The notes under the pieces are model-generated. The model saw nothing but the letters and a program-made list of their open reading frames with translations, made no database searches and was not told where the DNA came from. 64,000 bases of DNA. Source: Pseudomonadales bacterium. Its GTDB lineage: Bacteria > Pseudomonadota > Gammaproteobacteria > Pseudomonadales > Pseudohongiellaceae. The stretch is from assembly GCA_024234325.1 (NCBI GenBank), contig JACKOJ010000008.1, forward strand, positions 35,618 to 99,617. Reading direction: 5' to 3'. Position numbers and translations under genes: made by a program. Below, piece after piece: positions 53,375 through 59,073 of the stretch; the first letter of the stretch is position 1; each line of letters begins with the position of its first letter.

Positions 53375-56300
53375 CTATTGCAGCAGCGGTGCCAGGAAGC
53401 GCCCGGTGTGGGAACGTTTGCGCTTCGCCACCGTGGCGGGCGCGCCCTGTGCCACCACCTGTCCACCGTCCTTGCCGCCCTCCGGCCCCATGTCCAGTAC
53501 CCAGTCGGCCTCCGCAATCACGTCGAGATTGTGTTCGATCACCAGCACACTGTTGCCCGCGTCCACCAGACGGTGCAGCACCCGCAACAGCTTCTCCACG
53601 TCGGCCATGTGCAGGCCCACGGTCGGTTCGTCAAGAATATAAAGCGTATGCTGGCGGGTGTTGCGGCGCAGTTGCACCGAGGGTTTCGCCTTGGCCAGCT
53701 CCGTGACCAGCTTGATGCGCTGCGCCTCGCCGCCGCTGAGCGTGGGGCTCTGCTGGCCCAGGGTCAGATAGCCCAGGCCGACGTCCTGCAGCAGACTCAG
53801 CGGATGATGCACGAGCGGCACGGCGGAGAAGAATTCCACCGCGTCGTCCACACTCATCGCCAGCACCTCGCCGATGTGCCTGTCCTTGTAGCGCACGCTC
53901 AGCGTGTCTTCGTTGAAGCGCCAGCCGTGACACTCCTCACAGTCCACCCGTACATCGGGCAGAAAGCTCATCTCGATGCGCTGCATGCCGTTGCCGCCGC
54001 AGGTCTCGCAGCGGCCACCGGAGACATTGAAGGAGAAACGGCTGGGGCTGTAGCCGCGCAGTCGTGCGTCCACCGTGTCGGCAAACAGGCGGCGGATGTT
54101 GTCCCAGATGCCGATGTAGCTGGCCGGGCAGGAACGTGGCGTCTTGCCGATGGGAGTCTGGTCCACCTGCAACAGGCGGTCTATGGACTCCCAGCCGGAA
54201 ATGGCGTCGCAGTCAGTCGCAGAAGGCACTTTCCTGCGGGTGCCCTTCACTTTCAGCAAGGCGCGCAGATTGTCGTGCAGCACGCCGCGTATCAGGCTGC
54301 TCTTGCCGCTGCCGCTGACGCCGCTGATGGCCACCAGTTGGCGCAGCGGAATATCCACGCTCACTTTGCGCAGATTGTGCAGGGTGGCGTTTTCGATGTG
54401 CAGACTGTCCCTGCCAAATGCTGCTCGCGCGGCTTGGTCACGAATGCCCGGCAGCGGGTGACGCAGGGGTTTCGCCAGAAACTGCCCGGTCAGTGACTCT
54501 TTGTTCTTCTTCAGTTGGGCGAGCGTGCCCTGGGCAATGATCTGCCCGCCACGGGTGCCGGCCCCGGGGCCGACGTCGATGAGATGGTCCGCCTCGCGCA
54601 TGGTGGCGTCGTCGTGTTCCACCACGATCACCGTGTTGCCGTGCTGCTGCAGTTCGCGCAGGGTATCGATCAGCAGCGCGTTGTCCCGCGCATGCAGGCC
54701 GATGGTGGGTTCGTCGAGAATGTAGCACACGCCCTGCAGATTGGAGCCGAGTTGCGAGGCCAGGCGAATGCGTTGGGCCTCCCCACCGCTGAGGCTGGGC
54801 GCGGCGCGGTCGAGGCTCAGATAGCCGAGGCCAACCTTGTTCAGGAAACGCAGGCGCGACTGCAACTCGGGAATCACGTCGCGGGCGATGGCGGTTTCTT
54901 TCTTGCCGAAGCGCAGGGATTCCAGCGCCTGCCCGGCATCCAGCACCGTCAGCGCGGCGAAGTCCGCAATGGAGCGTTCGCCCAGGCGCACGGCCAGTGC
55001 CGTGGGGTTCAGTCGGCGACCGTCGCAGGACGGACACACCTGCCGCACAGGTGCCACGTCGTCCTTGTTCTCGGGAGTTTCCAGCCACTGGGCTTCCTCG
55101 CCGCTCTGTTCCTCCTCGAAATGTTCGATGATTTCGCCGGTGCCATAGCAACTGTGACACCAGCCGTGTTTCGAGTTGTAGGAGAACAGGCGCGGGTCGA
55201 GTTCGTCGAAGCTGTCGCCGCAGGAGGGGCAGGCGCGGCGGGTTGAGAACAGGGCATCGCCACTGCGCTCGCCGGCAGCCGCCGCAGCGGGCGAGAGCAT
55301 CATCAGCCCGTTGCCCAGCTCCAGCGCCTGATCGAGCAGGGCCGCTAATTGCGCTTCCTGGCGCGGGTTGACCTTGAGCGTGCCCAGGACAATCTCGATG
55401 TCGTGTTCCTTGTAGCGATCCGGCGGCGTCCAGGGATCGCTCGGCACCAGGCGGCCGTCCACGCGCAATTGCGCAAAGCCGCGTCCCGCAGCCCAGGCGG
55501 CGAGTTCCTTGTAGATGCCTTTGCGGCCCACCACCATGGGGGCTAGCACGCGAATTTCCCGGCCGCGCCAGTCTTTCAGGAGGCGCGCCAGAATCATGTC
55601 GCGGCTCTGCGGGGCGATGGCCTCGTCACAGCGGGGGCAGTATTGCGTGCCGAGTTTGACGAAGAGCAGGCGCAGGAAGTGGTAGATCTCCGTCAGGGTG
55701 GCGACAGTGCTCTTGCGACCGCCACGACTGGTGCGCTGCTCAATGGCGACCGTGGGCGGAATGCCGTGAATGGCATCCACTTCCGGGCGTGTGGCCGGCT
55801 GCACAAACTGGCGTGCGTAGGCATTGAGCGATTCGAGATACCGGCGCTGGCCTTCACCGAACACGATGTCGAAGGCCAGCGTGCTCTTGCCGCTGCCGCT
55901 GACGCCGGTGATCACGGTGAACTGGTTCCAGGGAATGTCCACGTCGATGTTCTTCAGGTTGTGCTCGCGGGCGTGGTGAATCTGAATGGCGGGTTTGCCG
56001 CGTGTGGCAGGCACATAGGCAGCCGCCGTCTCCCGCACGCTGTTGCGTCGGGCCTTGTGCAGGTCTTCCTCGTACTCGCGCAGCGCAATGGCGGTGAGGC
56101 CCTTGCCGGAGGCAAGAAAATCTTCCGGGCTGCCGGTGGCCACCAGGGTGCCGCCCTGATCCCCGCCCTCGGGACCGATGTCGATCAGCCAGTCCGCTGC
56201 ACGAATCACGTCCAGATTGTGCTCGATCACCAGCAGCGAGTGCCCGGCCTGCAGCAATTTCTGGAACGCCTTCATCAATACGCTGATGTCGTGGAAATGC

Positions 56301-59057: not shown

Positions 59058-59073
59058 CTGTATTAATATACAG
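59058..59073. promoter_or_regulatory. LexA (SOS) box upstream of the tandem UvrA gene
   Basis: CTGTATTAATATACAG is exactly CTGT-N8-ACAG with an AT-only spacer. It lies 26 nt upstream of the ATG at 59032. Confidence 0.7.

Follow-up and report, generated by a model that had tools for sequence, protein, structure and literature searches.

A double-length UvrA with a predicted LexA operator in a Pseudomonadales bacterium: a candidate single-chain, asymmetric UvrA dimer

What might a bacterium gain from a nucleotide excision repair (NER) sensor in which two UvrA units are joined in one chain, and do both units still do the same job? This question is raised by a 64,000-nucleotide stretch of contig JACKOJ010000008.1 (positions 35,618 to 99,617 of the forward strand, GenBank assembly GCA_024234325.1) from a Pseudomonadales bacterium of the Pseudohongiellaceae, hereafter the window, which carries a tandem uvrA gene of double length. 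An initial annotation had read this gene as an SOS-controlled fusion of two complete UvrA-like units, that is, a covalent pre-dimer possibly handling a class of lesions distinct from that of classical NER. Here, we argue instead for a division of labour, to which we would give a probability of roughly 55%: the gene would encode an accessory single-chain UvrA of NER, repressed by LexA and released in the SOS response, whose N-terminal unit (N unit) recognises the lesion and whose C-terminal unit (C unit) loads UvrB.

The catalytic inventory of the protein is complete. As first described, the open reading frame (ORF) is uninterrupted and contains four GVSGSGKS Walker A motifs (at residues 50, 668, 1043 and 1571), followed by TL in the first three and by SL in the fourth, four LSGGE signatures (490, 862, 1414 and 1765) and zinc modules in both halves, the latter represented by twelve CxxC motifs that make up three modules per half, six in total, at the expected positions. 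To these can be added four DEP(S/T) Walker B motifs (516, 905, 1440 and 1801) and four H-loops (549, 938, 1473 and 1834), whilst the DNA-contacting signature segments and the C-terminal zinc fingers are intact in both units. The Walker A lysine, the Walker B Asp-Glu pair, LSGGE, the H-loop histidine and the Q-loop glutamine are invariant at all four sites in 78 of 78 family members, which argues for a working four-site ATPase under purifying selection and not for a decaying duplicate. The whole 1885-residue protein, with both units summed, scores 2045 bits against NF001503 (cut-off 1147) and 1995 bits against TIGR00630 (cut-off 729.8); taken alone, the N and C units reach 976 and 1026 bits with TIGR00630, and 983 and 1068 bits with NF001503, in the latter case under its cut-off. 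An exact-sequence look-up of the protein returned no identical record. The G+C content is 0.64-0.65 at 54001-58000, within the gene, for a window average of ~0.60.

Where do the two units come from? The N unit aligns with Bacillus stearothermophilus UvrA (2r6f) at 794 bits in one collinear stretch (residues 20-972), and the C unit with the class I UvrA 9gxk at 845 bits in two stretches that skip chain residues 307-426, the place of an insertion domain of ~120 residues. Scores are lower for Deinococcus radiodurans UvrA2 (542 bits for the N unit and 551 for the C unit) and for Ecm16 (452 and 445), and this difference supports a genuine fused double UvrA in which both units would be of class I ancestry. 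They are 45% (N) and 46% (C) identical to Escherichia coli UvrA, and ~41% identical to each other.

However, the description of two complete units does not hold, since the C unit is without an insertion domain and the UvrB-binding domain of the N unit is both shortened and diverged. The spacing of the CxxC pairs of the second zinc module (Zn2), between which the insertion domain lies, is 115 residues in the N unit and 129 in E. coli UvrA, against 41 in the C unit; together with the alignments to class I structures, this indicates that an insertion domain of ~95 residues is gone from the C unit. That of the N unit aligns almost without gaps to the insertion domain of Thermotoga maritima UvrA and is of the short form, missing the long Arg/Tyr β-hairpin of Mycobacterium tuberculosis UvrA.

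The UvrB-binding domain, which sits between the CxxC pairs of the first zinc module (Zn1), is distributed the other way round. In the C unit, it matches Pfam UvrA_inter at 87 bits over profile positions 1-105 of 109, and its best match among PDB sequences scores 63 bits; the corresponding N-unit segment gives a partial Pfam match of 32 bits (positions 64-106 of 109) and a best PDB match of 35 bits, with a deletion of 13-16 residues. AlphaFold2 (AF2) models built for the two segments reach a predicted local distance difference test score (pLDDT) of 95 in the N unit and 90 in the C unit. In Foldseek, target-normalised TM-scores to 3fpn_A (the B. stearothermophilus UvrB-binding domain solved with UvrB) and 4dfc_B are 0.70 and 0.69 for the N-unit model, and 0.87 and 0.85 for the C-unit model (root-mean-square deviation 2.6); the only significant matches of either segment are UvrB-binding domains of UvrA. 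Taken with the Pfam and PDB bit scores, these models indicate that the N-unit domain has drifted with its fold retained, and that the C-unit domain is canonical. The symmetry implied by a pre-dimer is thus lost: there is one insertion domain and one canonical UvrB-binding domain, each in a different unit, and from its sequence the chain is best described as a conserved asymmetric pseudo-dimer.

Importantly, this asymmetry extends to the family. In every one of the 75 full-length orthologues with parsable motifs, the Zn2 spacing is 113-121 residues in the N unit and 34-55 in the C unit, and a neighbour-joining tree with E. coli UvrA as its root shows the N units and the C units to be each monophyletic. 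Both observations point to a single ancient fusion, with the domain loss already fixed. Mean identity to the window protein, across 78 family members, is 0.26 in the linker between the units and 0.63-0.82 in the segments of the nucleotide-binding domains (NBDs).

How common is this organisation? Among the matches listed by a search of 5.8 billion proteins, there are more than 120 full-length homologues of 1839-1943 residues at 64-90% identity, as well as one of 1781 residues covering 94% of the query. Their sources are Pseudomonadales metagenome-assembled genomes (MAGs), Pseudohongiella, Maricurvus, Gilvimarinus, Saccharospirillum and Marinimicrobium, and they are named 'excinuclease ABC subunit UvrA' or 'excinuclease ABC subunit A', with a single 'Excinuclease ABC subunit A, dimeric form'. 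The closest relative among the matches listed comes from a Pseudomonadales MAG, in which the protein is 90% identical and the gene order is kept. Counting one genome per species, at least 596 loci were confirmed, spread over Gamma- and Betaproteobacteria, Nitrospirota, Thermodesulfobacteriota, Verrucomicrobiia and others, and collinear full-length identity to more than 200 proteins and loci is 55-90%. A profile-free search with the C unit among 1.84 billion representatives at 50% identity gave matches of at least 1500 residues (1500-2343) in 123 of the best 150. Carriers of the plasmid class are a ~2-Mb Ralstonia megaplasmid, small Burkholderia replicons and the second chromosome of Cupriavidus metallidurans CH34.

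The statement that duplicated UvrAs are annotated in genomes without an assigned function is borne out in part: a full-text literature search turned up no study of what a double-length UvrA does, but with at least 596 species-genome loci the form is far commoner than had been implied. A 'class III' UvrA may have been defined earlier, by Goosen and Moolenaar (2008) or by Marszalkowska et al. (2013); a literature search for that term was without result. What we describe is a known and widely annotated family under a generic UvrA name, of which the window gene is a further member; what is new here is the conserved asymmetry of the units, its fit to an asymmetric-intermediate model and a lineage-specific SOS operator.

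Several side observations touch on the history of these proteins. Double-length UvrA-like proteins fall into size classes of ~1600, 1800-1950 and 2334-2343 residues, and the best match lies in the first half in some of them and in the second half in others, which suggests that architectures differ among them or that fusion took place independently more than once. A stand-alone UvrA of 914 residues (P0193, at 281-3025 of locus L091, an ENA metagenome scaffold) aligns collinearly with the C unit as a single stretch at 61% identity, and so is also without an insertion domain; upstream of it lies a partial ORF with no likeness to UvrA. Free-standing UvrAs of this kind may thus exist, be they ancestors of the fusion or derivatives of it. 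Of 784 plasmid records with UvrA-like genes, 220 cover most of the double-length query, and the remainder are single-unit matches on plasmids of Enterobacter, Acinetobacter, Klebsiella, Pantoea and Streptomyces, many of them conjugative; these are presumably class II-type UvrA paralogues. Finally, the Zn1 cysteines that flank the UvrB-binding domains are lost in both units of Burkholderiaceae and Comamonadaceae members, which have nine CxxC motifs in place of twelve (loci L046, L049, L050, L056, L060, L062-L064, L067-L070, L072-L074, L077, L079, L080 and L084).

Is the gene of the window switched on by DNA damage? A CTGT-N8-ACAG palindrome is present upstream as the initial annotation had it, ending 25 nt, not 26 nt, before the ATG at 59032, and this is its single occurrence in the window. 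By itself, the pattern is at chance frequency, with 0.92 matches expected per 64 kb and at least one in 63 of 100 shuffles. The weight of the box as a LexA signal comes instead from its position, conservation and recurrence. As to position, the sole promoter-like site found in 53200..59450 is TTGTCA-18 nt-TATATT, whose -10 hexamer (59065..59070) falls inside the box. An operator placed over the -10 hexamer is the classical SOS arrangement. As to conservation, intergenic alignment A1 shows no variation in the TTG of the -35 hexamer, and ACTGTATATT..TACAGC stands out as an invariant island against a mean column identity of 69% in an intergenic alignment with three syntenic relatives (proteins 80-90% identical). 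The arms of the box are invariant, with diverging flanks, in five of five syntenic relatives (L081, L082, L083, L087 and L090; proteins 77-90% identical); those at 79% and 77% protein identity carry CTGTATATTAATACAG at -42 and CTGTATATTGTTACAG at -66. No box was found in the relatives at 73% and 70% identity, where the upstream regions are rearranged.

The same kind of site recurs further away. A relaxed box lies within the 380 nt around the start at 12 of 83 orthologous loci, against 13 matches in the remaining 1.27 Mb, which amounts to a ~38-fold enrichment, and the orthologues with an upstream box include those of Bordetella, Achromobacter, Pandoraea and Cupriavidus. The CH34 copy has two perfect 20-bp extended LexA boxes, TACTGTATATTTGTACAGTA and TACTGTATGTTCATACAGTA, 343 and 184 nt upstream of the gene. 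These extended boxes, TACTGTAT...ATACAGTA, lie at 2658-2677 and 2817-2836 of locus L086 (second chromosome, NC_007974.2), and the ORFs between and upstream of them gave no Pfam match. No LexA box was seen upstream of the Ralstonia, Saccharospirillum and Pseudohongiella orthologues. Given its absence from most orthologous loci and its recurrence in distant ones, we would regard LexA control as lineage-specific and repeatedly acquired, and not as a character of the family. For the window gene, the overlap with the -10 hexamer, the invariance in five relatives and the enrichment give the predicted LexA control comparative backing, and we consider it well supported.

Table 1. Positions of the predicted features in the window (aa, amino acid residues of the tandem UvrA)
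Feature	Position	Strand	Description and basis
Tandem (double-length) uvrA gene	53375..59032	minus	ATG start, 1885 codons + stop; ORF list and translation
N unit, aa 1-975	56108..59032	minus	NBD-I + NBD-II with three Zn modules; insertion domain kept; diverged UvrB-binding domain
N-unit UvrB-binding-domain-like module, aa 139-264	58241..58618	minus	Between Zn1 CxxC pairs; Pfam, AF2, Foldseek
N-unit insertion domain, aa 285-403	57824..58180	minus	Between Zn2 CxxC pairs; Pfam UvrA_DNA-bind 54 bits
Inter-unit linker, aa 976-1012	55997..56107	minus	~37 aa, poorly conserved
C unit, aa 1013-1885	53378..55996	minus	NBD-I + NBD-II with three Zn modules; UvrB-binding domain of canonical type; insertion domain lost
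C-unit UvrB-binding domain, aa 1132-1271	55220..55639	minus	Pfam, AF2, Foldseek
C-unit insertion-domain remnant, aa 1292-1336	55025..55159	minus	~37-aa acidic loop between Zn2 CxxC pairs
LexA (SOS) box, predicted operator	59058..59073	minus	CTGTATTAATATACAG as found, CTGTATATTAATACAG on gene strand; CTGT-N8-ACAG
Sigma-70-like promoter	59065..59094	minus	TTGTCA-18 nt-TATATT, 10/12 positions; consensus match only
Divergent ORF, 248 aa	59350-60096	plus	No Pfam or NCBIfam match

The surroundings of the gene (Table 1) offer little by way of a partner. Flanking ORFs were clustered across 84 loci and any one family occurs in at most 8 of them, which argues that no dedicated partner is encoded alongside; nor is there a second uvrA or another repair gene among the scanned ORFs of the window. 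The clade of the window has a synteny of its own, in which uvrA is flanked by DUF4097-like and TauE genes at one end and by a formyltransferase gene at the other, and this sets it apart from other double-length UvrAs. Orthologues of the divergent 248-residue ORF in relatives give weak DUF4097 matches. Two intergenic blocks between the uvrA start and this divergent ORF, AGCACAAAnTGCGCCAACTTT and GGTTGGCGAA (minus strand; 59223-59244 and 59291-59300), are kept in syntenic relatives; their TTGGCG and CGCCAA elements are inverted copies, and L090 and L087 have an extra TTGGCGAAT copy closer to uvrA. A second regulator could bind at these blocks, or they could belong to a leader structure of the divergent gene. 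An Rfam scan of the intergenic region gave no match, and a sigma-54 reading of the TTGGCG blocks was rejected by eye, as the GG-GC spacing is wrong.

How does the protein compare with the UvrAs that are already known? Each unit resembles the core of canonical class I UvrA (E. coli b4058; 2r6f, 3pih, 3zqj and 9gxk), with two ABC and three zinc modules, and E. coli uvrA also has a LexA box, CTGTATATTCATTCAG. The window protein has the class I ABC motifs, three zinc modules per unit and a UvrB-binding domain in each (canonical in C, diverged in N); however, it has no insertion domain in every protomer, nor is it a symmetric homodimer of ~940 residues, with two insertion domains and two UvrB-binding domains, as canonical UvrA is. 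The double-length model NF001885 / PRK00635 (1809 positions), which we take to be the Chlamydia-type UvrA, is likewise a double-length polypeptide, yet the window protein reaches 1108 bits where the cut-off is 3054, and the first half of the model is where both of its units align. On these two counts we would place it in another double-length lineage.

Class II UvrAs (D. radiodurans UvrA2 2vf7, Ecm16 7sh1 and DrrC) are also accessory paralogues found beside a canonical gene, with unclear or non-NER roles, but they are homodimers of ~810-840 residues. They are defined by a missing UvrB-binding domain, and act without UvrB and UvrC (PMC9328131). We rejected membership of this class, whose proteins should also be without Zn1, on the UvrB-binding fold and Zn1 cysteines in both units and on the lower scores to 2vf7 and 7sh1.

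The closest likeness is to double-length UvrAs of Proteobacteria, such as the CH34 copy (NC_007974.2:1154957-1160761) and a protein of the Ralstonia solanacearum megaplasmid (QHB57088.1): a single ORF of ~1850-2000 residues, four NBDs, an insertion domain in the N unit only, 55-90% full-length identity and a matching asymmetry of Zn2 spacing, with LexA boxes in Cupriavidus also. All of the features of this type that we tested were found in the window protein. The Burkholderiaceae members differ in that their Zn1 CxxC pairs, kept in the window protein, are lost, and Ralstonia is without a LexA box. According to the CH34 genome paper, the NER pathway is complete and includes a uvrA, and uvrA2 (Rmet_4549), a second gene located on the second chromosome, is listed apart from it; the tandem copy is probably this uvrA2, on the basis of replicon and approximate position only.

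What, then, could such an asymmetric chain do? In the 2025 cryo-EM study of M. tuberculosis UvrA, the symmetric UvrA2 dimer turns functionally asymmetric on damaged DNA: the flipped lesion is held by the insertion domain of one protomer (the 'recognition-ID'), and on the partner protomer the UvrB-binding domain takes up the first UvrB, which displaces the 'support-ID' there (PMC11985968). UvrB binding and the contact of the insertion domain with DNA are sterically exclusive on one protomer, and UvrA2UvrB1 precedes UvrA2UvrB2 (PMC11985968). We posit that the two units of the window protein would fold onto each other as the protomers of a UvrA2 dimer do, and that the N unit would be the recognition protomer, its insertion domain serving to clamp the DNA and hold the lesion. 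The C unit would then be the UvrB-loading protomer, since no insertion domain is there to hinder UvrB sterically, and the resulting 1:1 complex with UvrB would be the asymmetric UvrA2UvrB1 intermediate in hard-wired form. Incision would follow via ordinary UvrB and UvrC, as the canonical UvrB-binding domain is retained and there is no dedicated neighbour. In this lineage, the protein would be made upon cleavage of LexA. Accessory status is favoured by the orthologues that sit on secondary replicons of Cupriavidus, Ralstonia and Burkholderia. More broadly, we could speculate that fusion let the protomers of UvrA2 specialise permanently, giving a frozen asymmetric sensor that pairs 1:1 with UvrB in a fixed geometry and is SOS-switched in some lineages; this is a tentative idea, and one we hold to be doubtful as it stands.

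Several points weigh against our proposal. The UvrB-binding-type domains are equally conserved in the family (mean identity to the window protein of 0.45 in the N unit and 0.46 in the C unit), which implies that the N-unit domain is under selection; diverged as it is, it may still bind UvrB, Mfd or another partner, and the one-UvrB model is weakened to that extent. In the canonical model, hand-off involves a loosening or dissociation of the UvrA dimer (PMC11985968), a step open to a covalent fusion only in part. The four NBDs may also pair in a swapped manner instead of folding head-to-head within the chain. With regard to regulation, a LexA box of the gamma/beta type is absent at 71 of the 83 orthologous loci.

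Might the protein work without UvrB altogether, as a DNA-scanning ATPase that dislodges intercalators or particular adducts in the manner of the class II proteins DrrC and Ecm16? It is a UvrA paralogue without a known role, class II paralogues need neither UvrB nor UvrC (PMC9328131), and the N-unit UvrB-binding domain has diverged. We nevertheless consider this unlikely, as both units are closer to class I than to class II UvrAs, the UvrB-binding fold is present in both and canonical in the C unit, and there is no context of antibiotic biosynthesis or efflux around the gene and no conserved neighbour. For the same reasons, namely the retained canonical domain and the lack of a conserved partner gene, we found no support for the earlier suggestion of a lesion class distinct from that of classical NER. 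Conversely, the gene could encode the sole UvrA of the organism, a fused housekeeping NER sensor, as where a long UvrA replaces the 940-residue form. The whole protein does pass both UvrA equivalog models, its relatives go under the plain name 'excinuclease ABC subunit UvrA' at NCBI, control by LexA is a typical trait of the housekeeping uvrA of E. coli, and a canonical uvrA was not found within the 64-kb window, a span that cannot prove genome-wide absence. Set against this are the patchy distribution of the family, its location on secondary replicons or megaplasmids in Cupriavidus, Ralstonia and Burkholderia, the NER uvrA reported in C. metallidurans besides the separate uvrA2, the scores of each single unit under the NF001503 cut-off and the position of the gene away from ssb, unlike canonical gammaproteobacterial uvrA. 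On balance, a housekeeping role is quite improbable.

Two further doubts concern the operator and the ORF itself. The palindrome might be a chance match, the site of another regulator, or an element serving the divergent DUF4097-like gene, with uvrA expressed constitutively. Indeed, about one such match is expected by chance in a window of this size, most orthologous loci are without a box, and it is seen only in relatives that keep the divergent DUF4097-like neighbour, being absent in L088 and L089, both of which are without that gene. However, its interior is A/T-rich and its first nine bases are those of the E. coli uvrA box; it lies 25-66 nt from the uvrA start as against ~290 nt from the divergent gene; and its overlap with the -10 hexamer of uvrA, its invariance within a 69%-identical intergenic alignment and its independent, enriched recurrence upstream of the Bordetella, Achromobacter, Pandoraea and Cupriavidus orthologues leave such explanations very little room. 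As for the ORF, an assembly or sequencing artefact that merged two adjacent uvrA-like genes has next to no chance of being the answer: nothing but the unusual length speaks for it, and a single full-length ORF with its units in this order and with these domain losses is found in at least 75 independent assemblies, complete chromosomes and megaplasmids included. This refutes the artefact, and also rules out the split into two ordinary genes that the initial annotation had allowed for.

If our preferred reading of an accessory, asymmetric single-chain UvrA is right, what would it mean? Both the UvrA:UvrB stoichiometry (A2B1 or A2B2) and the roles of the UvrA protomers in canonical NER are debated (PMC11985968), and the protein would be a natural single-chain model of the disputed UvrA2UvrB1 intermediate. 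Fixing two roles in one non-dissociating chain would make it a ready tool for cryo-EM and single-molecule work; it would permit unit-specific mutagenesis, which is impossible in a homodimer, and would test the need for dimer dissociation in lesion hand-off. Should the gene be a redundant back-up UvrA, the finding would be an ordinary one, and its mere existence will be of little surprise to the specialist; the interest lies in the architecture as a natural tool for the question of protomer roles. For annotation, the generic name 'excinuclease ABC subunit UvrA' would hide a distinct paralogue with lineage-specific SOS control, often carried on secondary replicons.

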